Virus record (IMG/VR): IMGVR_UViG_3300037313_000674
Span: 1 to 47,780 of that record
DNA from: a virus
Reading direction: 5' to 3' (one strand)
DNA: 47,780 nt
Position 1 is the first letter of the stretch. The number at the start of each line of letters is the position of its first letter. The position numbers and the translations under genes were made by a program. Below are positions 4,039-47,780 of the stretch, piece by piece. Below the pieces are notes generated by a model. The model was not told where the DNA came from. It searched no databases and was given only the letters and a program-made list of their open reading frames with translations.

Positions 4039-4077
4039 TGTCGAAAGAAAAAGCCCGCAAAATTCAACATTGCGGGC
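4039..4077 (-). promoter_or_regulatory. Element copy (13/14) overlapping a terminator hairpin, upstream of the primase gene
   Basis: The minus strand reads GCCCGCAA-TGTTGAATT-TTGCGGGC-TTTTTCTT-TCGACA. The TGTTGAA half-site sits in the hairpin loop and the partner TTCGACA follows 17 nt after it. The 16-mer AATGTTGAATTTTGCG is identical to the one in the copy at 35135-35165. Confidence 0.55.
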
Positions 4078-4090
4078 AAATAAAAAGCGG

Positions 4091-4918: not shown

Positions 4919-5356
4919 TCACTTCGTATTTTGCTCCACCCAAGACACGACGGCGCCTTCAAATCTGAACCATTCGAGGGCATGACGATACTCGGCGAAA
5001 CGTTGGTGCAATTCGCGTTCAAGCACATGCCCGTCGCCCTCGGTCAGCACCGTCAATAGCTCTAGCGGGTACGGATTCGCGGCTCTAAGCGAGTTTAAAC
5101 GCTTTTGAACATCGCCGGCCTTGCCAATTTTCACATAGTCGCCGCAACGGATTACATACACGTCGCATGGCTCGCGGCCAGGGGTATCGAAGTTTTCCTC
5201 AAACGCATTCGCATCTTCGGGACGGACGCGGACCATGGTCTTACCGATTGTGATTGCCGGCAATTCGCCGGTGCGGATCAAGGTCAGCACCATAGTCGCC
5301 GAACAATTCCACCTATCCGCCAACTGCGCCGGCGACAGTAAAGACGCCATTTTCAA
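4919..5356 (-). CDS. Excisionase-like HTH (HTH_17/MerR-type) fused to a T5orf172/MUG113 (GIY-YIG superfamily) domain
   Basis: The N-terminus reads LSPAQLADRWNCSATMVLTLIRTGELPAITIGKTMVRVR. The C-terminus reads VYVIRCGDYVKIGKAGDVQKRLNSLRAANPYPLELL...ERELHQRFAEYRHALEWFRF. There is an ATGA overlap with the int stop. Confidence 0.8.
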   Translation of the reverse strand: MKMASLLSPAQLADRWNCSATMVLTLIRTGELPAITIGKTMVRVRPEDANAFEENFDTPGREPCDVYVIRCGDYVKIGKAGDVQKRLNSLRAANPYPLELLTVLTEGDGHVLERELHQRFAEYRHALEWFRFEGAVVSWVEQNTK

Positions 5357-6363
5357 ATCTCCAAACTATCCGCCAAGTCCCGCAAATGGCCGGGGCTGTA
5401 GCGGGCGTAAACTTTCTCTGTGATTCTGCTGTCGGAATGCCCCAGGAACTGCGCGATCCTGGTCATCGTGTGGCCGTCTTCGGCCATCCACACCGCCGCG
5501 CTGTGGCGTAGCACGTGCGGTGTCACGCCTTCGAGCTTCGCCGACTTCGCCGCCGCCCGGATGCCCGTCTTGATCGATGCCACCTGCGCGCCGGCCCATT
5601 CGATCACATAGGGCGACAGCGCGGCCTGCTTGGCGAGTAGCAGCGCATCGCGCAGGCTGTTGTTCATCGGGACTGTCGCGCGGCGCTTGCGCTGCGTGAT
5701 GTCCTCCACATTGGTCAGCGAGATCGTGTTGCGGTCGAAGTCGACGCGCAGCCACGTCAGCTCGAGCGCGGCCGAGACACGGGCGCCGGTTCCGATCATC
5801 AGCCGGATCGCCAGCGCGATATGCGGCACCTTGGCGTGCTCTATCAGCTTGCGCACTTCGTCGCGCGTCAGGTAGCGGTCCTTCGGCGCCGGCTTCGATG
5901 GCCGCTCGATCTTCGGCGCATCGGTGATCAGCTTCGCGTCGCGTGCCCATACCAATATCGATCGGAGATGGCCGAGTTCGGTATGCACGGTTCCGACGCT
6001 CTTGCCGGTGCCGTACCGCTCGACGGCGTAGAGCCGGCAAAGGTCGGTCGTGATCTGGCCGGGATCGAGCTTGCCGAACGTTGGCGCGAGTGCCTTCCAT
6101 GTGTGGGCCATGGTTTGGAGTACGACCTTGCCGGCCTTGTCCTTCTGGTAGCCAGCCCACAGGTCTGCGACAGTCCGGCCTACCGGCCGCGTGAGTTCCG
6201 CGTATCGAGCCGCGGCAAGCGCTTTCGCTTCTCGGGCGTCGGAAGTTCCAAGACGGTAGCGCCGCCGTGTAGATCGTCCGTCGGGCTGCTCTTCGTCCCA
6301 GGCAACGCAGAATTCTCCGTTGAGCCTTGTGAGCCGCCATTCGAGTTCGTCGGATTTTTGCAT
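5353..6363 (-). CDS. int: Tyrosine integrase (phage integrase family)
   Basis: The sequence contains TGARVSAALELTW, HVLRHSAAVWMAEDG and LGHSDSRITEKVYARY (R...HxxR...Y catalytic pattern). The N-terminus is arm-binding-like. The gene is adjacent to the tRNA-fragment attP. Confidence 0.92.
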   Translation of the reverse strand: MQKSDELEWRLTRLNGEFCVAWDEEQPDGRSTRRRYRLGTSDAREAKALAAARYAELTRPVGRTVADLWAGYQKDKAGKVVLQTMAHTWKALAPTFGKLDPGQITTDLCRLYAVERYGTGKSVGTVHTELGHLRSILVWARDAKLITDAPKIERPSKPAPKDRYLTRDEVRKLIEHAKVPHIALAIRLMIGTGARVSAALELTWLRVDFDRNTISLTNVEDITQRKRRATVPMNNSLRDALLLAKQAALSPYVIEWAGAQVASIKTGIRAAAKSAKLEGVTPHVLRHSAAVWMAEDGHTMTRIAQFLGHSDSRITEKVYARYSPGHLRDLADSLEI

Positions 6364-6512
6364 TCGAATTCCTCCACCACATCAGCGCGAACGCGCAACA
6401 TCCGACCTATGCGGAAATAATTCAAGCGGCCTTCGGCCAATAGGTCGCGGACGTGCCTGGCGGAACAGCCCCAACGCTCGGCCAGGGTTTCGGGCGAGTA
6501 GACGTGCGTCAT
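6180..6512 (-). CDS. Xis/AlpA-like HTH_17 protein (110 aa as an open frame; the recognisable domain is the first ~50 aa)
   Basis: MTHVYSPETLAERWGCSARHVRDLLAEGRLNYFRIGRMLRVRADVVEEFE is paralogous to the N-terminus of 4919-5356. There is an ATGA overlap with the upstream gene. The frame stays open for 184 nt into int. Confidence 0.65.
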   Translation of the reverse strand: MTHVYSPETLAERWGCSARHVRDLLAEGRLNYFRIGRMLRVRADVVEEFECKNPTNSNGGSQGSTENSALPGTKSSPTDDLHGGATVLELPTPEKRKRLPRLDTRNSRGR

Positions 6513-6997
6513 TTCGGATCCATCTCCAAAGCGTCGAGCAGAAGGTCGGTGACCGCGCCGCAGACTTCCGGCCCGCTCAGATTCTCCCGCCGCAATTCGT
6601 TGACCTTGTCGAGCACGTCGATCAGCAAGCCTTTCGACGCCAGCCCGACCACCAGTCCCTGCGCCGCGGCGACGCGAACGACGTTGGCGAAGCTCGGCGC
6701 GCGCTTCGAGCTTTTCCAGTTCTCGACCGTGAACCGGCCGAGTTTGGCGTCGGTGGCGCGCTCTGCTTCGGAGCAGTTTTCCATCAAGGTCTTGATGACG
6801 GGATGCATGGTCGATTTCCTTGCCGCACGGGGGCGCAGTTGCTTGGAGTATGTGTAATTGGCGAGCGTGTCGTAGTTGACGCCGGCCAGTTCCGCGACAC
6901 GGGTAAGCGGCATGTTGGCCGGGTAGCGGGCGAGCAGGTTTACATAATAGGACCGCTTGCTCGGTCTTCCACTTGGCCGTCCAGTCGGTTTTGACAT
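6509..6997 (-). CDS. Hypothetical protein (162 aa) with an N-terminal HTH-like segment; first gene of the int operon
   Basis: The sequence begins MSKPTGRPSGRP...MPLTRVAELAGVNYDTLANY. It is divergent from the small regulator at 7110. Its start codon overlaps a TGTTGAA half-site. Confidence 0.65.
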   Translation of the reverse strand: MSKPTGRPSGRPSKRSYYVNLLARYPANMPLTRVAELAGVNYDTLANYTYSKQLRPRAARKSTMHPVIKTLMENCSEAERATDAKLGRFTVENWKSSKRAPSFANVVRVAAAQGLVVGLASKGLLIDVLDKVNELRRENLSGPEVCGAVTDLLLDALEMDPK

Positions 6998-7038
6998 GTT
7001 GAATTTGACCCTCATAAAAACTTCTACATTTTTCAACA
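6997..7038 (+). promoter_or_regulatory. Divergent control region with half-sites TGTTGAA (6997), TTCTACA (7022) and TTCAACA (7032)
   Basis: TGTTGAATTT...TTCAACA occurs with a 28-nt spacer, which is 17 + 11. A TTCTACA variant follows at an 18-nt spacer. The region lies between the 6997 (minus) and 7110 (plus) gene starts. Confidence 0.5.
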
Positions 7039-7044
7039 ATTACT

Positions 7045-7073
7045 CTTGCCTTTCGACAAAGACAAGCTATAAG
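7045..7073 (+). promoter_or_regulatory. Sigma-70-type promoter candidate for the rightward early operon
   Basis: CTTGCC-N16-CTATAAG resembles the rhizobial CTTGAC-N17-CTATAT consensus. It lies about 35 nt upstream of the ATG at 7110. Confidence 0.35.
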
Positions 7074-7109
7074 AGCGTTACACATCGACAAATTTTTCGG
7101 AGTTGGCGG

Positions 7110-7322
7110 ATGCCCGAAGATGTCAAGAAGCGCAAGCTCGGCACGGATGAAATGCTACCGCGCCTGGAGCAGGCGATAGAGAAAAGCGGGCTCAGCGCTA
7201 CGGCGTTCGGCTACATGTTCTTCAGCGATCCGACGATCATGAACAAGCTGCGCAACCGCGGCCGGCGGCTTTACAAGCTGCGCGAGGTCGCCGAGAAGGC
7301 TTGCCAGGAGTTCGGCGTATGA
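7110..7322 (+). CDS. Small regulator-like protein (70 aa), in a Cro-like position
   Basis: ATG at 7110 follows GGAGTTGGCGG. The product contains ...LSATAFGYMFFSDPTIMNKLRNRGRR.... It is divergent from the int operon. Confidence 0.6.
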   Translation: MPEDVKKRKLGTDEMLPRLEQAIEKSGLSATAFGYMFFSDPTIMNKLRNRGRRLYKLREVAEKACQEFGV

Positions 7323-8559: not shown

Positions 8560-8590
8560 CGCTGAATTTAGCGAATGAAATTGATCAACA
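8560..8590 (+). promoter_or_regulatory. Degenerate element copy (11/14): CGCTGAATTTAGCGAA...ATCAACA
   Basis: It has the same 17-nt spacing and a TTTAxCGAA extension like the copies at 10453, 14062 and 46727. A further TGTTGAA at 8601-8607 abuts the ATG at 8608. Confidence 0.35.
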
Positions 8591-8607
8591 ATATAGGTGA
8601 TGTTGAA

Positions 8608-9156
8608 ATGAGCGCCGAAGTTTTAACATACGAAATCGCGGCAAAGCTGCTTCGGTACGAACCGGAAACCGGCAAATTATTTTGGCGGTGGCGCCCGGCA
8701 GAGATGTTTACCCGTCGGCGCTGCTGGCTCACCTGGAATACGCGGTACGCTGATCGGGAAGCGTTCACGTCGACAAATGTCCAAGGATATAGGCAAGGAA
8801 GAATTGCACCGATGATGCTGAAAGCTCATCGCGTCGCATGGCTGTTGACCTATGGAGAGTGGCCGGAAACCGGCATCGACCACGTCGACGGCAACCGCCT
8901 GAACAACCGCATTGAAAACCTTCGCCTAGCGCCGCAGCGCGTTAACGCCAAAAATGCAAAGCTCAGCCGCAGCAACACGAGCGGCTGCACGGGAGTGAAC
9001 TGGATCCAACGCGAGCGCAAGTGGCGCGCACACGCCAAGGTCGACGGCCACGATATCCATCTCGGCTATTTCAGTAATTTCGACGACGCGGTTGCCGCTC
9101 GCCGGGAAGCCAACATGCTTTATGGTTTTACCGAGCGCCACGGGACGGCAGCATGA
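8608..9156 (+). CDS. HNH endonuclease with a C-terminal AP2 DNA-binding domain (homing-endonuclease type)
   Basis: The sequence contains AHRVAWLLTYGEWPETGIDHVDGNRLNNRIENLR (HNH_3) and SGCTGVNWIQRERKWRAHAKVDGHDIHLGYFSNFDDAVAARREA (AP2). AGGTGA lies 8 nt before the ATG at 8608. Confidence 0.85.
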   Translation: MSAEVLTYEIAAKLLRYEPETGKLFWRWRPAEMFTRRRCWLTWNTRYADREAFTSTNVQGYRQGRIAPMMLKAHRVAWLLTYGEWPETGIDHVDGNRLNNRIENLRLAPQRVNAKNAKLSRSNTSGCTGVNWIQRERKWRAHAKVDGHDIHLGYFSNFDDAVAARREANMLYGFTERHGTAA

Positions 9157-10451
9157 GCGCGCTCTACCCCTACCAGGTCGAAGGTTCCGAATGGCTAGCC
9201 GAGCGAAAGCGGGCCATGTTGGCGGATGACATGGGCCTCGGGAAATCGGCGCAGTTGATCAGCGCCTGCGATCTCGTCTTCGCCGTCGACGTGCTGGTTA
9301 TATGCCCCGCATCGATCGTCGCCAATTGGCAGCGTGAGATCGAGATGTGGCGGGTCGGCCAATGGACGGCCACGGTCGTCAGCTATGAAGGCATGCGCGC
9401 CCGGCATGAAGAATTTATGGCCAAGCGCTGGAGCGTCCTTGCGGTGGACGAAGCTCATTACATGAAGAGCCCGACCGCCAAGCGCACGCTGGCCGTCTAC
9501 GGCGACACGACAGGCATTATTCGGGAGTTTGAAGGGCTCGTCGACCGGGCCGAATATGTTTGGGTTGCCACCGGGACGCCTCAGCCTAATTTTCCGAATG
9601 AGCTTTACACGCATTTCAAGGCCCTGCGGCCGGACTTGATCGTCGGGCCACGCTCGGGCCGGGTCTACACGCACGAGCAATTCAATTCGCATTTTTGTGA
9701 AATGAGGCCGGCCTTCCAGGGCATGAAGATCGTCGGTTCCAAGAACGAAACGGAGTTAGCCGTCAAGCTTTCGCGATTGGCCCTCCGGCGATTGAAGGAA
9801 AGCGTTCTGCCCGAGCTGCCCGAAGTCCGATTCAGCGAATTCGTCGTCGACGCCGACCTGACCGATGTCGATCTCGGCATCAATCCGATCGAGGCGAAGA
9901 TGATCAAGGTCGTGCTCGAGCGCGACGGCGTGGCCGGACTGAAGTCGGCCGTGACGCATCTGGCGTCGCTCCGCAGAGTGACGGGATTGGCCAAGGTCAA
10001 GGCCGTCGCCGAGTATATCAGGATGTTCCTCGAAACGACCGATCGCAAGATCGTGGTCTTCGCGCACCATACCGAAGTGATCGCCGCGCTGCGCAAGCAG
10101 CGTGGGCTGCAGGGCGCCGTGGCGCTGACCGGCGCGACGAAGATCGGGGAACGCGGCGAAGTCGTCAGGGAGTTTCAGTCCAACCCGAACATCCGGGTTT
10201 TCTTCGGCCAGATCCAGGCAGCGGGAACCGGCAACACATTGACCGCGGCGTCCGACCTGCTGTTCGTCGAATCTTCGTGGGTTCCGGCGGAGAATGCTCA
10301 AGCTGCCATGCGGATCCACCGGATCGGGCAGAAATCGCTGTGCAACGTCCGTTACGCCGTGCTGCCAAAGTCTGTCGACGGGCTGGTGATGCGCGCGGTC
10401 ATGCGTAAGAGCGAGAGTATCGCGAAAGTGATGGGCGAAGCTACGCCCTGA
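9153..10451 (+). CDS. SNF2/RAD54-family helicase
   Basis: Motifs seen are DDMGLGKS (I), AVDEAHYMK (II), IQAAGTGNTLTAAS (V) and RIHRIGQ (VI). Confidence 0.9.
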   Translation: MSALYPYQVEGSEWLAERKRAMLADDMGLGKSAQLISACDLVFAVDVLVICPASIVANWQREIEMWRVGQWTATVVSYEGMRARHEEFMAKRWSVLAVDEAHYMKSPTAKRTLAVYGDTTGIIREFEGLVDRAEYVWVATGTPQPNFPNELYTHFKALRPDLIVGPRSGRVYTHEQFNSHFCEMRPAFQGMKIVGSKNETELAVKLSRLALRRLKESVLPELPEVRFSEFVVDADLTDVDLGINPIEAKMIKVVLERDGVAGLKSAVTHLASLRRVTGLAKVKAVAEYIRMFLETTDRKIVVFAHHTEVIAALRKQRGLQGAVALTGATKIGERGEVVREFQSNPNIRVFFGQIQAAGTGNTLTAASDLLFVESSWVPAENAQAAMRIHRIGQKSLCNVRYAVLPKSVDGLVMRAVMRKSESIAKVMGEATP

Positions 10452-10452
10452 A

Positions 10453-10483
10453 TGTTGAATTTAACGAACCAAAATCTTCAACA
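10453..10483 (+). promoter_or_regulatory. Perfect element copy TGTTGAA-N17-TTCAACA
   Basis: The sequence is TGTTGAATTTAACGAACCAAAATCTTCAACA. It lies in the 50-nt gap upstream of the ATG at 10502. Confidence 0.6.
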
Positions 10484-13524: not shown

Positions 13525-13749
13525 ATGGCCTGTAACTGCATCGAAGTCGTCGACCAGAAGCTGAAGGAGCGGAACACGCGTCTTCAGGCCACGATCATCT
13601 TTTCCGATCCGATGCGGCACACCGTATCGCTCGGGACAGAACAACTCGAAAAGGGCCGCGGGAAGGCTAAGGCGGTGGCGATGCTACCAACCTTCTGCCC
13701 GTTCTGCGGCGTGCGTTATGTCGAAGCGGAGGCTAAAACCGATGGCTGA
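13525..13749 (+). CDS. Small Cys-containing protein (74 aa), zinc-ribbon-like
   Basis: The cysteines form the pattern CNC...CPFC. The ORF is coupled to the downstream gene. Confidence 0.55.
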   Translation: MACNCIEVVDQKLKERNTRLQATIIFSDPMRHTVSLGTEQLEKGRGKAKAVAMLPTFCPFCGVRYVEAEAKTDG

Positions 13750-14026
13750 CATCGATCCCGAAGCACCGACCTCGGACGGCAAGCCCCGCCCGAACAACAT
13801 CGCCGGCCAGGAACTGTCGCAGTTCATAGACCGTATCGAGCGCCTGGAGACGGAAATTCAGGGGCTCAAGGGCGACAAGTCCGATATCTACGGCGAAGCT
13901 AAGGGCTGCGGCTACGACACCCGCACGATCCGCAAGATCGTCGCCCTTCGCAAGAAGGACGCCGACGAGCGGCGCGAGGAAGAAGACCTGCTCGACGCCT
14001 ACCTGCATGCGATCGGCATGATCTGA
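13742..14026 (+). CDS. GapR-like / DUF2312 (UPF0335) DNA-binding protein
   Basis: LSQFIDRIERLETEIQGLKGDKSDIYGEAKGCGYDTRTIRKIVALRKKDADERREEEDLLDAYLHAIGM closely follows the GapR/DUF2312 pattern. Confidence 0.85.
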   Translation: MADIDPEAPTSDGKPRPNNIAGQELSQFIDRIERLETEIQGLKGDKSDIYGEAKGCGYDTRTIRKIVALRKKDADERREEEDLLDAYLHAIGMI

Positions 14027-14061
14027 ATCTGTCGCGGCCGGCGGTTCGCTGTCGGCCGCGA

Positions 14062-14092
14062 TGTTGAATTTAACGAAGGAGATTTATCGACA
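14062..14092 (+). promoter_or_regulatory. Element copy (12/14): TGTTGAATTTAACGAAGGAGATTTATCGACA
   Basis: The RBS GAAGGAG lies in the spacer. The right half-site ends on the A of the ATG at 14092. Confidence 0.5.
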
Positions 14093-17953: not shown

Positions 17954-18946
17954 TTAATCGTCCAGCCGCTCGGCCAAACATGCCGCTGAGTGATGGCCGT
18001 ACACGCGCTCGACAGTCTGTATCGTGTCGCCGAGCAGTTTCGCCACATCGAACACTGATTTTCCCTCTTGGAGTAGGTGGGAAGCCCTGGTGTGCCGCAT
18101 GCAATGCGGATTGGCGCGATCAGCCATCCCAAGCCCTTCAAGAAGCTCACGATATGGGGCATAGAAATCGGCCCGCTGAAACAGCCGTTCGTTCGGGCTC
18201 GACAGCCACAGCGCATGCAATGGCGCTTCCATCTTCTTCAGGATAGGCACGATCGGCTGCCGCTTCTTGGTCGTGATCTTGCCGGGCAGTTGCAGGGTGA
18301 TTCGGCGCGTCTCCCAATTGACCTGCGACCGGCGCAGGTTCTCGATTGATGCGCGGCGCGCGCCCGTGTAATAGAGCAGCTTCACGAAATGCTCCAGTTC
18401 CCCGCCGCCCTGCGACGCCGCCCAAAAGATCCTGGCAAGCTCTTCCCGGCTGTAATAGGACGCTTCGTCGTCATAGCCGATCAGCTTCTCGTGCGGGTAT
18501 TCGATCGATGGCATGGCCAGAATGCGCTTCCAGCGCAGCGCATGCTTCGCTGCCGCGTGCAGCACGGCCAGTTCCCGTTTGATCGTGGCATCGCTGCCGG
18601 TCTTGTCTTTGCGCTTCGCGCCGCCACCGATCTTCCCGGAGCGTCGAACTTCTGCGTATTCTCTTGAATGAACTATATCGATATCTTCAACAGCGCGGCT
18701 GCCGAAAAACGCCTTCAGGTGCTTGACGATATTGTCCCTGCGCTCGGGGTCGGCAACGCGATGCTCAAGACAATACTGGTCGAGCATGTCGCTCACAGCA
18801 AGTCTTCGAGGCCCTTTTCGTCGATCGACGGTCGGCTCAAAAGTCGTGCTCGAAGGGACCGGGCGGCTTCGAGTCTTGCCGCTATCGTCTTTCCAGTAGA
18901 GCCGGAACGTGCCTTCTTCGGTTTGGCGGATTTCCTGGCCACGCAT
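17954..18946 (-). CDS. Second tyrosine recombinase (phage integrase family)
   Basis: The sequence contains LLYYTGARRASI, HCMRHTRASHLLQEG and LGDTIQTVERVYGHH. It lies immediately downstream of the XRE gene. Confidence 0.88.
   Translation of the reverse strand: MRGQEIRQTEEGTFRLYWKDDSGKTRSRPVPSSTTFEPTVDRRKGPRRLAVSDMLDQYCLEHRVADPERRDNIVKHLKAFFGSRAVEDIDIVHSREYAEVRRSGKIGGGAKRKDKTGSDATIKRELAVLHAAAKHALRWKRILAMPSIEYPHEKLIGYDDEASYYSREELARIFWAASQGGGELEHFVKLLYYTGARRASIENLRRSQVNWETRRITLQLPGKITTKKRQPIVPILKKMEAPLHALWLSSPNERLFQRADFYAPYRELLEGLGMADRANPHCMRHTRASHLLQEGKSVFDVAKLLGDTIQTVERVYGHHSAACLAERLDD
18662..18692. promoter_or_regulatory. Intragenic element copy (13/14) inside recombinase 2
   Basis: The sequence is TCTTGAA-tgaactatatcgatatc-TTCAACA. 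It sits in an AT-rich island within otherwise GC-rich coding sequence. Confidence 0.4.
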
Positions 18947-18949
18947 GGT

Positions 18950-19408
18950 TTAGCTCGCTTCTCCGGTAGGGATTGGTGCACTTTTCGCGCCTTTCAGCAG
19001 TTTCATGACTTCGATCGCCACCCCCCACGGCACACGTTGATTGACGCGCAAGAAAGCTTCGTCGTTCCCCGCATCCTGCACGTCGAGCGGCGGGGCCTGC
19101 ATCATCACCGATGATGGCGCGGCTTGCGGCGGCAGCAGGTCGGTGGTCTTGACGCCGAGCACATGCGCCAGCGCTTCGAGCACCGCGGCGCGTGGTATGA
19201 CCTTCCCGTTGATATAAATGGAGATCGAATCCCGGCTGATCTTGCTGTCTTTTCCCAAGTGCTGCTGCACTCGGCGGGCCAATTCCGCCTGGTTCCACCC
19301 CTTGGCGGCCATGGCATTATATAGATTTCTGGAAAATTCCAGACGAGCACGCTCTTTCGGGAGCAAAGCGACTTCCGATGTCGTTTGATTATGGAAATGA
19401 CGTGGCAT
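18950..19408 (-). CDS. XRE/Cro-CI family HTH repressor-like protein (152 aa, no S24 peptidase domain)
   Basis: NLYNAMAAKGWNQAELARRVQQHLG...SRDSISIYINGKVIPRAAVLEALAHVLGV is an HTH_3 segment. The ATG at 19408 has GAGGA 6 nt upstream. Confidence 0.85.
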   Translation of the reverse strand: MPRHFHNQTTSEVALLPKERARLEFSRNLYNAMAAKGWNQAELARRVQQHLGKDSKISRDSISIYINGKVIPRAAVLEALAHVLGVKTTDLLPPQAAPSSVMMQAPPLDVQDAGNDEAFLRVNQRVPWGVAIEVMKLLKGAKSAPIPTGEAS

Positions 19409-19415
19409 AAATATC

Positions 19416-19442
19416 CTCAACAAAAATCAACAATGTCCAACA
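19416..19442 (-). promoter_or_regulatory. Three direct TGTTG(G/A)N half-sites phased at exactly 10 bp, between promoter and RBS of the XRE gene
   Basis: The minus strand reads TGTTGGAcatTGTTGATtttTGTTGAGGATATTTATG. Plus-strand copies start at 19416, 19426 and 19436. Confidence 0.5.
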
Positions 19443-22635: not shown

Positions 22636-25600
22636 TTGCCGACCTCTGTCGAACGTTTTTGATCGTTATTTTCTACACTATCCGGTTGACGATTTCCAGA
22701 TGCGGCCGCGAGCAGTTTGTTGAGCCTGGCGTTCCATGCCGGCGTGCCGATTTCCTTGACGTTGCGGGTCAAGAGGTGCTGCGCCAAGTCAGGATTGAAC
22801 CACAGATCGGTCAGAATGTGCTCCACGTCCTGCGTTTTCGTGCTCATGCTGCCGATCGCGTCAGCAAACAGGCGAAGCGTGCGCGTGACACCGCCGCCCT
22901 TCAGGACGCCGTAATGGGCCTTGGTTGCGGCCTCGATCATCCGCCACCGCTTCGACGACGTATCTTTGGCCGCAGAAAGAAAGTTCTGGAACGTGTCGGA
23001 TCCGCCCGTCACCTTCACGTCCAGGTTGGCGGCCACGTCGAGCAGCTTGTGCGCCTGCCGGAGGCTGTTCATTTCCTCCGGCGTGTAGACCTTGGCCAGC
23101 GTCTGCTCGTGCTTGGCAAACAGGCGATCGAGCGCCGCACGGCTGAACTTTTCGGTATCGGGGAAGCCGACATTCTTGCCGGTCGTCGACGCCCTGCCGG
23201 TGATCCAGTCGCGCACGGCGGCCTTCAGGCCATCGGTCGCTTTCTGGTCGCCGCTGAGCCGCGCCACGAGATCGCCCATCTTCTTCGCCGGATCGCCAGA
23301 GCCCATAATGCTGGCGATGGTGTTTTCCGGGTCGTTGCCGATGGCGTGTTGCAATGCCGATCGGCGCAGCGTGTCTTCGGTCATGCCGAGATTCTGCTGC
23401 GCATACTGGACATCCATGGCCAATTGCCGCGATAGACGGCCGCCTTGATCGGCACGGGCCAATTCCTGATCGACGCGCTGCCGAAGGGCCGGAAACTGGT
23501 CGATCACCGCCTGCCGGTCACGCGCCCATTGGCGCATCCGGTCATAGCGAAGCTCGCCATTGCCGTTGAGCACGTTCGATTTGGCCAAATCACCGAGCAT
23601 CCATTCGGTTGCGTTTTGCGCCGTCACCGGGTTGCCGTTGACATCGATGGCGCGCTGCAGGGAATTGGCGTCTTCGGGCTTGGCCAGGAACTTCTGCGCA
23701 AACTCGCTCGGGCGCGTGGCGCTGCTTTCGTCGCCGGTCTTCACGGCACGTTTTAGCTGCTGGCTGTATTCGCCGGCCTTGCCGGTGCGGAACCGGGGCG
23801 CGAAATTGTTGGCGTAGTTGGCCGCCGCTTGCGGATTGACGGCATCGATGCGGTCGGCCAGCATGGCGTTCAGCTTGTCGATCTGCGTCACGTCCCGGCC
23901 GGCGGCGACTGCGTCCTTGCGCATCGCGCCAACGTCAGTCTTGAGCACCTTGAGATCGCCATATGTCAAATCCCGGAAGGTCATTTCGCCGGTCTCGGGG
24001 TCGACCTGCTGCACCAGCCCGCGAATGCGGCCGAGCGCATTGGCGTAGTCGGTTCCTTGCTGCGCGGCCCGTGGCACGGTGGCATTGATGTCGTCGAGAG
24101 CTGCGCTGATGTCGGCGCCATCGATGGCCGTGTTTTGAGGAACGGCGTCGTAGAGCGCGTTCTTCTCGGCGGTGGCGGCTTCGTTCTGATTGCGAAATTC
24201 GGTGTCAAGAGCGGTCGACCGTTCCGGCTGCCGGCGGCGCGCTTCCTCTAGCATCGCATTCTGCGCGTTGATGTCCTGCGTGCCTTGCGCTTCAGCCACG
24301 CGCGCCGTTTCGAGCTTGTTCCGGGCTGCGCCAAGGGTGTCGTCATACTGCCGGGTCATGGCGTTGACCATGTCCTGGCTCTCGGCCTGCGCCGGCACGG
24401 TTGATTTGATCTTGTCGGATGCGAGCGCGTTGCGCGCTGCGTCGCTCTCGGCGAAGCGCTGCGGATTCTTGGTCCGCGCCACCTTCTCGTTCAGGGACAT
24501 GCCGATGTCGTTGGCGAGCATGCCGGTCGTCGGCATCTGGTCGGCGTTGGCGAACTGGCCAAAATCCTGCTTGGCGGCTTCAAGGTTGGCGACGGTCTTG
24601 CCGGTGTCGGTCGGCATGTTCTGCGCGATGCGCGCAGCCATGTCCATTTCGGACGGCTTGAACGCCTTGTTCGTCGCCGGGTTGACTGGCGTGCTCGGGT
24701 CCGTGAACATGCCGAACTTGTCCGCGGCGAAGTCTCTCGCGTTGGAAATCGTGCTGTCGACCAAGGCGTGGCCGGCTGAATTGATCGTCGCGCCGGCATG
24801 CGCGCCCATCAGCGCAGCGGCGATCTGACCGAGCGGACCAAGCTTCTCTTTCAGCCAATCCGGGACATATTCGTTGTAGCCTTCCGACGTGACGCCGGCC
24901 GTCGTCCCTGCCAATGCGTCTCCCATCAGCGCCTTCGACGGATTGACGGCATATGGTGCTTCCATCGTCGCCAGGATTCCGCTTTCGGCCGGAGCCGCGG
25001 CGTTCTTGGCGGCCAATGCGCCACCAGCGAGCAACGCCCCGGTGCCGAACCGCAAGCCGGTGCCGAGCAGCCGGTCCTGCGCCGACACATCGTTCGGGCT
25101 GATCTGCATCGACTGGTCTTCCGGCACAGCGCCGGTCATGTGCCCGATGGCGTCTTCGGCGGAAATGCGCTTCTGGTTGAGCCAATCGGACGAGCCCGGC
25201 AGCGACGCCGGGATGCGGGTGTCGACATTGCCGCCGAACAGATTGGCGACCTTGTCCGCGCCCCAAAGAGCGGTATTGCCGAGCAGGCTCGACAAATCCA
25301 CTGGCGCGCCAACAATGTCGAGCGGCGCCTTGGCCATCTGCTGCAGCTTGTAGGTAGCCGGGTCGTTGAGGTCGTTGCGTTCGCGATAATTCTGGTTGAC
25401 CATGTCCTTCAGGGACTGGTCGGTGATCTCGGCTTTCGGCACTTCCGCGCCGATCGATGCAGGTGCATCGAACATCCCGGCCGTCGGCGTGACCGAATTG
25501 ATGGCGTTGTGCTCAGATTGCTTGGCGACTTCCTGTTGGCCAATCGTATTGAAGATGTGCTCGGCTTCAATAGCCTGCTGGTCCGGAGAGAGGGCCAAAA

Positions 25601-32378: not shown

Positions 32379-32434
32379 GTTGTTTCCTCGTGTTGAAAGG
32401 GGCGGCAGTCGCCCGTCGCCCCTTCAATCTAGCG

Positions 32435-32465
32435 TGTTGAACAACATTTGTCGATAGTTTCAACA
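32435..32465 (-). promoter_or_regulatory. Perfect element copy inside the late operon
   Basis: The minus strand reads TGTTGAA-actatcgacaaatgttg-TTCAACA. An 11-12 bp hairpin (32393-32427) and a third TTCAACA just before the RBS follow. Confidence 0.6.
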
Positions 32466-32937: not shown

Positions 32938-32965
32938 CGGCTTAAACTCCAGTTTGGTTCAAGGG

Positions 32966-32990
32966 TGAAAAGCGCGACCGAAGCCGCGCT
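32966..32990 (-). terminator. Rho-independent terminator after the major capsid gene
   Basis: The minus strand reads AGCGCG-gcttcggt-CGCGCT-TTTTC. Confidence 0.65.
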
Positions 32991-35134: not shown

Positions 35135-35165
35135 TGTTGAACAACATTCTTCGCAAAATTCAACA
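35135..35165 (-). promoter_or_regulatory. Perfect element copy between portal and scaffold genes
   Basis: The minus strand reads TGTTGAATTTTGCGAAGAATGTTGTTCAACA. It is followed by the hairpin ACAGCG...CGCTGT and the RBS AGGAG. Confidence 0.6.
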
Positions 35166-42508: not shown

Positions 42509-42539
42509 TGTTGGTCAATCTCTTGCGTTATATTCAACA
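42509..42539 (-). promoter_or_regulatory. Element copy (12/14) at the head of the late operon, in the divergent gap with the M15 gene
   Basis: The minus strand reads TGTTGAATATAACGCAAGAGATTGACCAACA. The left arm closely resembles the TGTTGAATTTAACGAAGGAG copies. Confidence 0.45.
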
Positions 42540-43839: not shown

Positions 43840-44097
43840 TCAGCACCTCACCCTGCGCTGCGACAGGAACGACAGCGGCACCACCTGCCCGTCCGGCGTG
43901 ACCAGCAGTATCAGCGACGGCATTTCGAGCTTGCCGGTCGTGCATTTAGGCTCGCGCGTCGTGCTGTTCGGCAGTTTCTCGAACACCTGCGGCTTGACGG
44001 GCGCGGTCGCGGCGTGCGCCAAAAGCGCTATGCCGAACAGCCACACCAGCAGGGAAAACGTGATTATTCCAATCCAGGCCCACACTTTCGATCGCAT
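43840..44097 (-). CDS. Small N-terminally anchored membrane or periplasmic protein (85 aa) downstream of the sigma gene
   Basis: The sequence begins MRSKVWAWIGIITFSLLVWLFGIALLAHA and continues with a roughly 55-aa soluble part. It starts 3 nt after the sigma stop. Confidence 0.6.
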   Translation of the reverse strand: MRSKVWAWIGIITFSLLVWLFGIALLAHAATAPVKPQVFEKLPNSTTREPKCTTGKLEMPSLILLVTPDGQVVPLSFLSQRRVRC

Positions 44098-44100
44098 GTT

Positions 44101-44580
44101 TCACCCCTCATAGCCGGTCAGTTCGGCCAATCTCTTCTGACCCCGGTGGACGCGGCTCTTGATCGTGCCGACCGGAACGGCCTGCAGCGCGGCCATTTCT
44201 TCATATTCATGCCCGAGCCCGTAAAGCACGAGCGTGTCGCGCATGGGCGCCGGCAAGTCGTTCAGCCGGACGAAGACCTGCTTGGCTGCGAGCGCGGCTT
44301 CCGGGTCGTCTTTCGCCGGCAGCATTTCGATCACGAGATCGTCCGGCTCGGCCATCAGGTGGCGCTTGCGCGTCGTCTGCGTGATGAATTCGTTTCGGCA
44401 GATCGTCGTCAGCCAACCGGCCATGTTCGACCCCGTCTGAAACTGATGCTGGCGCTCAAGGGCCCTGGCGAGCACGTCCTGCATGAGGTCGTCGGCGCGG
44501 TCGGCGTTCCGGGTCAGCCGGAGCGCGTAGCTGCGGAGTTTCTTAGCGTGATGCAGCAGTTCGTCCGCGAAATCGGCCAC
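44101..44580 (-). CDS. ECF-type sigma-70 family RNA polymerase sigma factor (159 aa)
   Basis: Region 2 reads DLMQDVLARALERQHQFQTGSNMAGWLTTICRNEFI. Region 4 reads LPAPMRDTLVLYGLGHEYEEMAALQAVPVGTIKSRVHRGQKRLAEL. The GTG start follows AAGGGGA. Confidence 0.88.
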   Translation of the reverse strand: MADFADELLHHAKKLRSYALRLTRNADRADDLMQDVLARALERQHQFQTGSNMAGWLTTICRNEFITQTTRKRHLMAEPDDLVIEMLPAKDDPEAALAAKQVFVRLNDLPAPMRDTLVLYGLGHEYEEMAALQAVPVGTIKSRVHRGQKRLAELTGYEG

Positions 44581-44681
44581 CTGGAAATCCCCTTCTATCG
44601 ATCGGCGGGGCCGATGCCGTGAGGTTTGCCACCGGCCCCGCTTCCATCAGCCCGTCCCGTGCGGCGGCGACCGGGCTGGTT

Positions 44682-44833
44682 CGTGATTTCGAAGCTGCGC
44701 GGCGCGTTCGGGATCGAACCGGGACACCCTCACTATCGCCAAACTCAAGACCTACCCGCCCTTGTCGGGTCGTCGGTCACGGGGTTCACTGATACCCCCG
44801 CCAAGCAAGCGGCCGCGCAGCCACGAAATCACG
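44682..44833. repeat. Long-range inverted repeat, 22 nt per arm (20/22), enclosing 108 nt of hairpin-rich sequence
   Basis: The arm cgtgatttcgaagctgcgcggc (44682-44703) pairs with the reverse complement of gccgcgcagccacgaaatcacg (44812-44833). The only mismatches are the central 2 nt. Confidence 0.75.
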
Positions 44834-44843
44834 CTGTTCAAAG

Positions 44844-44939
44844 AGACCGGCCCGCCATCCGTGTACGGGGGAGGAGGGGACTTTTGGCAGGCCGGTCTTA
44901 GCTTCCAGTTTGCGCGGGAGGAGGTGCGCGGTCTGGAAG
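44844..44939 (-). ncRNA. Candidate sRNA module with two hairpins each carrying CCUCCUCCC (cuckoo / CcsR / alpha-r14-like)
   Basis: Minus-strand RNA hairpin 1 (44902-44939) is CUUCCAG..GCGC-A-CCUCCUCCC-GCGC..CUGGAAG. Hairpin 2 (44844-44898) is AGACCGGCC...CCCCUCCUCCCCC...GGCCGGUCU. No plausible ORF is present in the 370-nt gap. Confidence 0.45.
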
Positions 44940-44950
44940 AAACTTGTGTT

Positions 44951-45259: not shown

Positions 45260-45310
45260 CGGTCTTGCTTTCTGTCTCGTTGAACGTTTTGTTGATCGAA
45301 TGTCGATCAA

Positions 45311-45341
45311 TGTTGAAATGTGTAGAACAGAAAATTCAACA
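45311..45341 (-). promoter_or_regulatory. Perfect element copy upstream of the gp49-like / sRNA / sigma unit
   Basis: The minus strand reads TGTTGAATTTTCTGTTCTACACATTTCAACA. Confidence 0.6.
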
Positions 45342-45498
45342 AAGCAATAGGGTTTTTTAGTTTCAGAAAATAAAAAATTAGTGCGTCAGGGCTGCAGGCT
45401 GTAGCTACTCGGCCGGCGGCCACCCCCAGGGGGCGGGGGCCGGCCCACTGGCCGACCTGGCGGCGGATTGCGCATTACCGCCTGAGACAGGCTGTATT

Positions 45499-46071
45499 TC
45501 ATTCAAGTAAATCAGATAGATAGTCGTCGATGATCTGCGTTTGGCCACGGTTTTGGCCGCGTTTTGCGGCCTTTTCGGGCTCTATGTCCACTATACTGGA
45601 CATCGCTTCGGCCTTTTTCCGCTCTAAATCGACTATCAGGCGATCGATCGCGTCAACGTCGAGCGCGCCGTTGCCCCTCCGCATTGATTCCCGGAAGCGA
45701 TCGACGGCCAGATTTGCATGCTCCTGCAGCCTGGCAGCCGCCTGGACGCGCGCGGCCGGCGGCGCTGATGCCTTCTGAACGATCTGCATTTGGGCCTTGA
45801 TCGCCGCCGGGAAAGCCACCGCGTTAAGGTACTGCATGCCCATAATCTGCATGGCGCGGGCAAAGCTTGGGGCCGCTTGAATCGTAGATAGGTCAGCATT
45901 GCTGACGTATCCGGAACGGATTAATGCAGTTGCATCTAATTCGTTTTGTAAAAGCTGCCATGCCAGTATCGCCTCGCGCACGGAAATGCCCAACGCTGCG
46001 CATTCATCCTCACTCCAAGGAAAAACGCTGTTGGTTGGCAGCGCGATTGATTTAGCTGCGTTATTTTTCAT
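45499..46071 (-). CDS. Hypothetical protein (190 aa; alternative start 46116); first leftward gene from the four-half-site hub
   Basis: The ORF is long and predicted helical. The function is not recognised. It could be a regulator or a small terminase, but there is no evidence for either. Confidence 0.6.
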   Translation of the reverse strand: MKNNAAKSIALPTNSVFPWSEDECAALGISVREAILAWQLLQNELDATALIRSGYVSNADLSTIQAAPSFARAMQIMGMQYLNAVAFPAAIKAQMQIVQKASAPPAARVQAAARLQEHANLAVDRFRESMRRGNGALDVDAIDRLIVDLERKKAEAMSSIVDIEPEKAAKRGQNRGQTQIIDDYLSDLLE

Positions 46072-46089
46072 AAAAAGCCTATTGCCTTT

Positions 46090-46140
46090 TGTTGAACATT
46101 GTTGAATACTGACCATGCATCGTAATTCAACATTTCAACA
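46090..46140. promoter_or_regulatory. Hub of four perfect half-sites: TGTTGAA x2 (46090, 46100) and TTCAACA x2 (46126, 46134) in the divergent control region
   Basis: The sequence is TGTTGAAcatTGTTGAAtactgaccatgcatcgtaaTTCAACAtTTCAACA-GGAGcaacgactATG. Confidence 0.65.
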
Positions 46141-46152
46141 GGAGCAACGACT

Positions 46153-46482
46153 ATGCAAACCCTCGCCACCATTTACGAATTCCGCACCGCCAATTTCATC
46201 GTCCGCGTCGACGCGCTTGAGGAGATCGACCTCGATCTCCCTTGGGACGATACCGGCGAAGTTGCCGAGAAGCTCGACAACGGTCAGCTTGTGGCGTTCT
46301 GCGCCAAAGCCGCCGTGCTGTTCCGCGGCACTGAGATCGGCGCCGACTATCTCGGTAACTGCATCTATGAGAGCTTCGACGGCTTCCGCCACGATAGCGG
46401 CTATTTCCACGATATGGTCAGCCTCGCCATCCGCTCGGCACGCGATCATTTCAAAGACCTGCCTGCCTTGCGGGCTGCATAG
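46153..46482 (+). CDS. Hypothetical acidic protein (109 aa); first rightward gene from the hub
   Basis: AGGAG lies 8 nt upstream of the ATG. No motif was recognised. Confidence 0.65.
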   Translation: MQTLATIYEFRTANFIVRVDALEEIDLDLPWDDTGEVAEKLDNGQLVAFCAKAAVLFRGTEIGADYLGNCIYESFDGFRHDSGYFHDMVSLAIRSARDHFKDLPALRAA

Positions 46483-46726: not shown

Positions 46727-46757
46727 TGTTGAATTTAACGAAAGGAGTTCTTCAATG
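46727..46757 (+). promoter_or_regulatory. Element copy (12/14): TGTTGAATTTAACGAAAGGAGTTCTTCAATG
   Basis: The RBS AAAGGAG lies in the spacer. The right half-site contains the ATG at 46755. Confidence 0.5.
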
Positions 46758-47528: not shown

Positions 47529-47780
47529 ATGATCGACCACGAAATCCGGCACAACGAAACCGACGCGATCCTGTTCACCGCGAAAATCGAGTGCAAAACG
47601 ACAGTTTCGACGGGCGTGAAACTCGGCATGGCTGTTCTCGCCGCGCTCGCCGCTGGGGCCGACCTGCGCGGGGCCAACCTGTACGGGGCCAACCTGCGCG
47701 GGGCCAACCTGCGCGGGGCCGACCTGCGCGGGGCCAACCTGTACGGGGCCAACCTGTACGGGGCCGACCTGTACGGGGCC
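47529..47780 (+). CDS. Pentapeptide-repeat protein, 5' part (runs off the window end and continues at 128-676)
   Basis: GGAGAA lies 6 nt upstream of the ATG. The product begins [52 protein letters not shown].... Its frame matches frame 2 at the window start after removing the 127-bp overlap. Confidence 0.85.
47654..47780. repeat. Second copy of the 127-bp terminal overlap
   Basis: It is identical to 1-127. Confidence 0.93.

Follow-up and report, generated by a model that had tools for sequence, protein, structure and literature searches.

The DNA analysed here is the whole of a 47,780-nucleotide stretch (the window; positions 1 to 47,780 of the IMG/VR virus record IMGVR_UViG_3300037313_000674), and its subject is a cluster of four perfect copies of the heptamer TGTTGAA at positions 46090–46140, at the junction of two divergent accessory transcription units of an uncultured temperate phage. 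The four heptamers are read as an operator cluster for a phage-encoded sequence-specific regulator that would shut both units, a reading to which a probability of roughly one half is given. The same heptamer recurs between genes throughout the window, predominantly in a 31 bp element oriented along transcription, and the element is kept with a changed half-site in the nearest relatives. The junction is very probably a regulatory operator, yet one node of a genome-wide regulon, and no evidence was found that it is a separate master switch.

Anatomy of the junction

The interval 46090–46140 reads TGTTGAAcatTGTTGAA-tactgaccatgcatcgtaa-TTCAACAtTTCAACA, i.e. TGTTGAAcatTGTTGAA-N19-TTCAACAtTTCAACA, which agrees exactly with a preliminary description of four perfect half-sites in a 51 bp quasi-palindrome. 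Half-site 1 (TGTTGAA, 46090–46096, plus strand), which extends to the 9 bp mini-palindrome TGTTGAACA, is repeated directly with a 10 bp period by half-site 2 (TGTTGAA, 46100–46106, plus strand). Half-site 3 (46126–46132, minus strand; TTCAACA in the plus-strand reading) is the inverted partner of half-site 2 across the N19 spacer and is followed on the minus strand by TTACGA, a shortened form of the directional core described below; half-site 4 (46134–46140, minus strand; again TTCAACA in the plus-strand reading) stands at an 8 bp period from half-site 3. The half-sites are therefore ordered as two inward-facing tandem pairs (-> -> <- <-), with spacings of N19 for the inner pair, N27 and N29 for the mixed pairs and N37 for the outer pair; the N17 spacing that dominates elsewhere is unused here. 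In shuffles of local composition (n = 300) four heptamers within 51 bp were obtained 0 times, and the maximum of two was reached once. The preliminary description had called this the densest cluster of the genome, which is so for perfect copies but not at ≤1 mismatch, where six copies are found at 45278–45341 and five at 6997–7058.

The cluster occupies an 81 bp divergent intergenic region (46072–46152) between the leftward gene A and the rightward gene B, as had been noted from the outset, and both divergent promoters presumably lie in this region. The right-most half-site does border the ribosome-binding site (RBS) of gene B: it abuts GGAG at 46141–46144, and the gene B ATG (46153) follows 8 nt on. 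The leftward start at 46116 is also where it had been placed, the minus-strand ATG at 46116–46114 falling in the central spacer of the cluster; the JGI gene call has gene A begin here (205 aa). From the alternative start at 46071, which has a weak AGG 7 nt upstream, gene A would comprise 190 aa and 46072–46152 would be wholly intergenic.

Two promoter candidates were read by eye at the junction. The spacer of the candidate rightward promoter TTGCCT-N17-AATACT (46082–46110, plus strand; 8/12 matches to the sigma-70 consensus) is filled by half-sites 1 and 2. That of the candidate leftward promoter TTGCTC-N17-TACGAT (46119–46147, minus strand; 7/12 matches) is filled by half-sites 4 and 3, and its −35 box overlaps the gene B RBS. 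Both candidates are absent from the consensus-scan calls, and scans across the window with the Escherichia coli consensus and with the alphaproteobacterial CTTGAC-N16–18-CTATAT gave numbers of matches equal to those in shuffles, so the two positions stay putative. A 'CTCTTGC' −35 box was not enriched in the window (seven copies versus 7.1 expected) and no fixed TTGC-N5-TGTTGAA grammar was found. Judged from its sequence, the junction has the anatomy of a multi-site protein-binding operator laid over presumed divergent promoters and the gene B RBS region. To this extent it has the architecture that the preliminary description expected of a master operator; the master or switch role itself gains no support from the flanking genes, an ORFan and a mobile accessory gene.

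The half-site family in the window

On both strands of the window TGTTGAA occurs 27 times, against 4.24 ± 1.94 expected from 100 dinucleotide-preserving shuffles (shuffle maximum 10). Most of these perfect heptamers (21 of the 27) lie in the 12.5% of the window outside the gene map, and the heptamer family is the sole motif common to the intergenic gaps. Half-sites are arranged as direct repeats with an 8–12 bp period, as inverted pairs at an offset of 24 and as singles abutting start codons. The dominant arrangement is the 31 bp element TGTTGAA-N17-TTCAACA, N17 palindromes with up to three mismatches being found 12 times versus 1.2 expected; four are perfect (10453, 32435, 35135 and 45311) and eight have one to three mismatches. 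The elements follow the pattern TGTTGAA-ttTAaCGAa-N8-TTCAACA and, when aligned along their flanking genes, show the common asymmetric core TGTTGAAttTAaCGAa..A.aTtgTTCAACA, with identical 16-mers in three copies. Scored blind in both orientations, the core ran along the gene strand in 10/10 unambiguous contexts (p about 0.001). The combination of palindromic arms with a directional core is an unusual site architecture.

In total the genome has about 16 regulatory sites, namely 12 31 bp elements and four arrays (6997–7058, 19416–19442, 45278–45341 and 46090–46140). They are AT-rich islands in a 60% GC genome, stand 0 to 57 nt from an ATG and, as far as the elements are concerned, are present in early, late, accessory and lysogeny regions. 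Of the window's 17 matches to a sigma-70-type consensus, four coincide with an element or array, each time on the strand of the gene. Mismatches in an arm are never compensated in the opposite arm within the window which, together with the existence of independent half-sites, fits protein half-sites better than an RNA stem. The cluster at 46090–46140 had been described as separate from the int-proximal divergent region; the same half-site is, however, present there (at 6997, at 7032 and, as TTCGACA, at 7052), in the leader of the XRE gene and in the twelve 31 bp elements, which makes the junction one node of what appears to be a single regulon.

Searches for the site outside this phage group returned little. 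Among the matches listed for the bare N17 palindrome in viral contigs there were only single chance-level ones, and a 19-base directional pattern gave 12 single matches in viral and metagenome collections, all on contigs of 31–44% GC, with no other contig using the element. The heptamer was found in the literature in primer-type matches only. Scans for Rfam families and tRNAs were negative. Among known motifs, FNR/FixK boxes, the LexA box of alphaproteobacteria, CtrA, IHF and the Pho box, as well as the C operators of phage 16-3, were rejected for misfits of spacing or sequence.

Conservation in relatives

No close relative was found among GenBank phages. The nearest relatives are the IMG/VR contigs L005, L006 and L007/L147, with 72–74% identity in the capsid protein and 75% in the DNA polymerase. 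A further locus, L227, is a prophage of Mycoplana azooxidifex DSM 100211 (Rhizobiaceae), the closest relative; its capsid identity is the same as that of L007, and the two are very likely the same prophage. In these relatives the element architecture is kept at orthologous core positions but is built from TGTCGAA, as found by inspection of the orthologous gaps. L147 carries TGTCGAA-N17-ATCGACA at 3003, after the helicase gene, and at 6699, after a GapR-like gene, an element that ends in CCTACA-ATG and has the RBS in its spacer, as do those at 14062 and 46727 of the window. L005, L006 and L007 have a TGTCGAA element at about 8870, between the portal and scaffold genes (the orthologue of 35135), and elements at L007:11569 and L006:11551 stand after the capsid region and before a conserved GC hairpin. 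The T-to-C change from TGTTGAA to TGTCGAA is mirrored in both arms within the same 31 bp frame, as would be expected of an operator that co-evolves with its protein. The A/B junction itself was not found in any available relative. Neither an exact-arm search nor word enrichment revealed an equivalent palindrome of another sequence in the capsid relatives, and a primase search gave only a 35% relative.

Proposed mechanism

Independent half-sites, uncompensated mismatches, symmetric co-variation, overlap with promoters and the sites in the XRE leader together point to a protein that reads TGTYGAA base-specifically. This protein would be phage-encoded and most likely the prophage repressor, with the XRE/HTH_3 protein as the leading candidate on the strength of its family and its leader sites. 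The phage is temperate (it has two integrases and the XRE gene) and none of its large open reading frames (ORFs) matches a phage RNA polymerase family; its modules should thus be silenced at host-polymerase promoters in the lysogen. At the junction the bound protein would cover the entire 51 bp core of the 81 bp gap. Within this core would lie the spacer and −10 box of each presumed divergent promoter, the two overlapping one another, and the DNA beside the gene B RBS, so that both accessory transcription units would be shut together. Elsewhere the same protein would bind about a dozen 31 bp elements and the three other arrays; these dispersed sites, on promoter-like sequences or in short co-directional gaps, may block initiation or elongation in the fashion of stoperators.

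The XRE/HTH_3 repressor-type gene (18950–19408, minus strand) lies beside the second integrase gene and encodes an HTH_3 domain only. Its leader contains three phased half-sites, TGTTGGA, TGTTGAT and TGTTGAG on the minus strand (19416–19442, 10 bp period), which stand between a predicted promoter CTTGCA-N17-CTAGAT and the XRE ATG, the last of them overlapping the RBS. A PDB sequence search returned no match for the XRE protein at E ≤ 0.1. An orthologue in contig L168 is 39% identical.

Several points weigh against the operator reading. The L168 orthologue is without a similar leader array, and it is from family membership and leader sites that the XRE protein is put forward as the reader. With their centres 24 bp apart, the half-sites are widely spaced for a simple helix-turn-helix (HTH) dimer, and with the other spacings in the cluster at 26, 34, 36 and 44 bp no one binding geometry covers all sites. 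The junction promoters reach only 7–8 of 12 matches, in a window where consensus scans overall equal shuffles. If genes A and B are morons expressed in lysogeny, silencing by the prophage repressor is not expected; and nothing in the evidence distinguishes repression from activation.

A bolder version would place the junction at the top of the lytic cascade: one repressor would gate overlapping immediate-early promoters, one of them leading to the extracytoplasmic function (ECF) sigma factor of the phage, and would act as a directional roadblock elsewhere, a stoperator-like system that would have arisen independently in Rhizobiales podoviruses, with sites both palindromic and directional. This version is regarded as rather unlikely. 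To our knowledge, stoperator-like silencing has so far been described for cluster A mycobacteriophages. The region 6997–7110 and the locus of the XRE and second integrase genes are better candidates for the immunity region.

Alternative explanations

The element might itself be a promoter for the phage ECF sigma factor (44101–44580) or for a modified host polymerase, the junction then consisting of back-to-back promoters; we give this a real but small chance. It would account for the element being the sole conserved intergenic motif, with no second ECF-like motif, for its direction along the genes and for its frequent position after GC hairpins, i.e. at unit boundaries. The phage does have an ECF sigma factor and large ORFs without a match to RNA polymerase families, and TGAATTT, followed 15 nt later by TCAAC, loosely recalls RpoE-type promoters, which read GGAACTT-N16-TCAAA. 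The arms, however, are symmetric and change symmetrically in the relative, which is not expected of separate −35 and −10 boxes, and they match sigma-70 hexamers poorly. The element is found in early, late, accessory and lysogeny regions alike, relatives that have it appear to be without this sigma factor (best homologue 44%) and no perfect half-site stands in the 370 bp gap in front of the sigma gene. Three sites (14062, 46727 and L147:6699) have the RBS inside the spacer and a right arm that extends as far as the ATG, so that the neighbouring gene could not be expressed from a transcript begun beyond that arm. An AAC-N16/17-CGT motif, as in ECF-type boxes, was not common to the intergenic gaps. 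A local autoregulatory switch, in which the product of gene A or gene B binds the half-sites and balances the divergent units and hence the ECF sigma factor, is improbable, even though the divergent geometry, the four perfect sites and the position of the sigma gene downstream on the leftward strand would suit it, as would the HTH-like N-terminus of gene A (a helical bundle at residues 20–80 of the model). Neither gene A nor gene B has family or fold support for DNA binding, and gene A is an ORFan although the motif family is common to relatives that lack gene A in the parts examined. A second array and a GC-rich inverted repeat moreover separate gene A from the gp49-like and sigma genes, and with the half-site present genome-wide a junction-specific reader is unnecessary.

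Sites for a nucleoid or architectural protein (the phage GapR-like protein, host GapR, IHF or a MucR-type silencer) are a still less probable explanation of the AT-rich elements. GapR is a nucleoid protein of alphaproteobacteria, and the phage encodes a GapR-like DNA-binding protein with a conserved counterpart in the relative. GapR is bound to AT-rich DNA close to where transcription begins and ends (PMC13408042), which would suit AT-rich sites in a 60% GC genome. It has, however, no motif that explains its binding by itself, whereas seven of seven positions conserved in 27 copies, the defined spacing and the T-to-C switch indicate base-specific recognition. Action at the RNA level, with a hairpin or single-stranded motif that serves in processing, antitermination or the control of translation, would explain why the element is co-oriented with transcription and why some copies enclose the RBS and abut the AUG; the junction would then be a long hairpin, and as RNA it does fold at −18.6 kcal/mol (z = −4.2), while the TGTCGAA/TCGACA version of the relative still base-pairs. 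We nevertheless hold this to be very improbable, because single elements fold weakly (−4 to −10 kcal/mol, z −0.35 to −1.6, with a 17-nt loop) and no better than shuffles, arm mismatches in the window are uncompensated, tandem direct repeats of the half-site cannot pair, the divergent junction is not transcribed across as one RNA and no Rfam family was matched. Equally doubtful is the idea that the elements serve mainly to carry accessory genes from phage to phage, as mobile regulatory cassettes or as recombination boundaries, in the manner of PeSL in T4-type phages, the junction being a by-product of two cassette insertions. In the window as in L006 an inserted HNH gene does have elements on both sides, each of the accessory genes A, B, C and D lies between elements and hairpin-plus-element arrangements exist; but the elements are conserved at orthologous positions of the core genome, and the motif does not accompany the gene B homologues of other phages. 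Such mobility is in any case compatible with a regulatory role and would account for the spread of the elements, not for their function.

Comparison with known systems

Dispersed phage operators are already known as a kind, and what stands out here is the site architecture and the host group; a limited literature search yielded no description of such dispersed sites in Rhizobiales-type podoviruses. In the system of the immunity repressor gp71 of mycobacteriophage L5 (cluster A) one short site is likewise present in many copies (>20) genome-wide, some at promoters and some in the short gaps between genes. L5 stoperators are defined by an orientation that correlates with the direction of transcription (PMC9283540), and in the window, with its 12 elements and four arrays, the core likewise runs along transcription (10/10). 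The L5 site, however, is a 13 bp asymmetric sequence bound by a monomeric two-domain repressor (an HTH plus a stoperator domain), whereas here two symmetric 7 bp arms lie 24 bp apart in a 31 bp element with an asymmetric core, tandem arrays also occur and the candidate repressor has nothing beyond an HTH_3 domain, its sequence matching no solved structure. The host here is alphaproteobacterial and the phage is a podovirus with T7-like replication.

In phage P1 a single repressor, C1, acts on many scattered operators, which are single and asymmetric or, in stronger 'bivalent' form, paired in inverted orientation, and the junction with its four sites would correspond to a multivalent operator of this type; the P1 consensus is, in contrast, a 17 bp asymmetric one, and its operators are not described as co-oriented in intergenic gaps. 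The junction would resemble the lambda OR region (PRM/PR; CI and Cro), where neighbouring operator sub-sites share a short stretch of divergent promoters and their occupancy sets both directions, but in lambda the flanking genes are regulators at an immunity locus, whereas here they are an ORFan and a mobile accessory gene. The conserved inverted repeats (CIRs) bound by the c repressor of Streptomyces phage phiC31 and the start-associated sequences of cluster K mycobacteriophages are likewise repeated inverted-repeat or start-proximal motifs in many intergenic regions of temperate phages, with some copies beside terminators or over an RBS, as at 14062, 46727 and 4039. They differ in sequence and in host phylum, and start-associated sequences stand at a fixed distance from the ATG, which here varies from 0 to 57 nt. 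The T4-type promoter early stem-loop (PeSL) is also a repeated intergenic cassette, with a stem-loop and a promoter-like sequence, that flanks small accessory or ORFan genes; it provides sigma-70 early promoters in lytic phages and has no operator function, whereas the core of the present element is a symmetric half-site that co-varies between phages.

If the operator reading is correct, a whole T7-like genome would be silenced through one short DNA word at every transcription-unit boundary, a second, independently evolved case of the dispersed operator or roadblock strategy known from L5 and P1, and the immunity groups of Rhizobiales prophages could be predicted from a simple sequence handle, TGTTGAA or TGTCGAA. 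The consequence for the junction would be modest: genes A and B would stand out as accessory genes under tight common control, and the junction would gain importance only if its transcription reaches the ECF sigma gene.

Individual elements and arrays

On the rightward strand, a 31 bp element with one mismatch (1129–1159) follows the rightward unit within a convergent gap, and its core points along the plus strand. An element with three mismatches is combined with a perfect half-site at 8601 (8560–8607, plus strand), and this half-site abuts the ATG of the HNH endonuclease gene. The perfect element at 10453–10483 (plus strand) follows the helicase gene and is the orthologue of L147:3003. In the element at 14062–14092 (plus strand), the orthologue of L147:6699, the RBS falls within the spacer and the right arm extends to the ATG; a 15 bp GC hairpin (14030–14063) precedes this element. 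In the element TGTTGAATTTAACGAAAGGAGTTCTTCAATG (46727–46757, plus strand) the RBS again falls within the spacer, and the right arm overlaps the gene D ATG.

On the minus strand, an element with one mismatch at 4039–4069 lies upstream of the primase gene, with its TGTTGAA arm in the loop of a terminator-like hairpin, and another with one mismatch (18662–18692) falls within the second integrase gene and is co-oriented with it. An element with two mismatches (22647–22677) stands directly upstream of the endolysin gene. The perfect element at 32435–32465 is followed by a GC hairpin, a layout shared by L007 and L006. The perfect element at 35135–35165, in the portal/scaffold gap, overlaps a promoter-like TTGACT-N18-AAGAAT, and one with two mismatches at the head of the structural operon (42509–42539) overlaps TTGACC-N17-TATTTT, a promoter-like sequence of the gene strand. 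Several elements have a GC-rich hairpin immediately next to them (hairpins at 14030–14063, 10433–10448, 4043–4085, 32398–32425 and 32950–32975), and at some of these the T-rich left arm would serve as a U-tract. A hairpin resembling T7 Tphi follows the capsid gene.

The int-proximal divergent region (6997–7072) contains TGTTGAA at 6997, TTCTACA at 7022, TTCAACA at 7032 and TTCGACA at 7052, and amounts to five half-sites at ≤1 mismatch between 6997 and 7058. The half-site at 6997 overlaps the ATG of a gene for a 162-aa HTH-like protein. The best-scoring early promoter, CTCTTGCC-N16-CTATAA (7043–7072, CTTGCC from 7045), is conserved in L147 and L148; it has TTCGACA (7052) in its spacer and another half-site just upstream. 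The array upstream of the gp49-like gene (45278–45341, minus strand) consists of five phased direct half-sites at 45278, 45290, 45301, 45311 and 45321 and an inverted TTCAACA at 45335, and contains the perfect N17 palindrome 45311–45341; at ≤1 mismatch it holds the six copies counted above.

Flanking genes and the ECF sigma factor

Neither of the genes that flank the junction looks like a regulator, and neither was assigned to a DNA-binding family or fold. Gene A (45499–46071, or from 46116; minus strand; 190 or 205 aa) is an ORFan: a family search gave no match, none was found in viral contigs and among 5.8 billion proteins only gene A itself was recovered. Its N-terminus is HTH-like, and in the structure model (predicted local distance difference test, pLDDT, 62.7) residues 20–80 form a small helical bundle (pLDDT 75–83), but the model had no PDB neighbour better than E = 0.77. 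Gene B (46153–46482, plus strand; 109 aa) heads the rightward unit formed by genes B, C and D and the pentapeptide-repeat gene. Its relatives were found at four loci in low-GC phages unrelated to the phage of the window (44–49% identity), and the motif was not found there.

The importance of the junction depends on whether leftward transcription reaches the ECF sigma gene past the second array. The leftward unit had been thought to run from gene A through to this gene; it is broken by the half-site array at 45278–45341 and by a 24-nt GC-rich inverted repeat in the gap between gene A and the gp49-like gene (45404–45452), so that the sigma gene would have a checkpoint of its own. A canonical terminator was considered for 45404–45452 and rejected: the GC hairpin is strong, but the U-run lies ~30 nt away and the z-score of the fold is −1.6. 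The 370 bp gap upstream of the sigma gene (44581–44950), which had been called an 'sRNA region', contains no Rfam family, tRNA or perfect half-site.

The sigma factor (44101–44580, minus strand) passes the TIGR02937 cut-off. Its closest homologue anywhere is 44% identical, and no match lies on a contig sized like those of the related phages. It is followed by an 85-aa ORF (43840–44097, minus strand) that could encode an anti-sigma factor.

Phage genome

The window is a whole JGI contig; it has an exact 127 bp terminal overlap (1–127 and 47654–47780) inside the pentapeptide-repeat gene and is therefore a complete circular assembly of about 47,653 bp (~47.65 kb). The pentapeptide-repeat gene spans the contig ends, from about 47.63 kb to 676, and its product has a DUF5758 C-terminus. 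The genome carries a T7-like replication module (helicase, exonuclease, a gp2.5-like single-stranded DNA-binding protein, a family-A DNA polymerase and primase) and, on the minus strand, a podovirus-like structural module; it also encodes two tyrosine integrases, the XRE/HTH_3 protein, the ECF sigma factor, the gp49-like protein and the GapR-like DNA-binding protein.

The first integrase gene (5353–6363, minus strand) adjoins the gene for the 162-aa HTH-like ORFan (6509–6997), a protein for which no relatives and no significant PDB sequence match were found. For another small DNA-binding candidate, cro70 (7110–7322), PDB sequence matches were limited to E > 0.4 and the structure model was poor (pLDDT 56.7). 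The second integrase gene (17954–18946, minus strand) is paired with the XRE gene, as it is in the L005 contig (L168). The GapR-like protein (13718–14026, plus strand; PF10073, E = 8.5e-28), encoded immediately upstream of the element at 14062, is 61% conserved in the Mycoplana prophage relative (L147 6432–6662); GapR being alphaproteobacterial, the gene is a phage-borne copy.

An HNH endonuclease gene (8608–9156, plus strand) is inserted between the RuvC and helicase genes and is not in L147. Its homologue in L006 (338–832) lies in a different context and has CCCTCTTGCA boxes on both sides, each followed by a TGTCGAA-type half-site. The early operon also encodes a protein with the N-terminal domain of dATP/dGTP diphosphohydrolase (PF18909; 7319–7894, plus strand), which is conserved in L147. 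In the relatives a tRNA-like sequence follows the DNA polymerase/integrase module (L147 12640–12715 and L168 1375–1430) and is probably the attachment site at a host tRNA gene.

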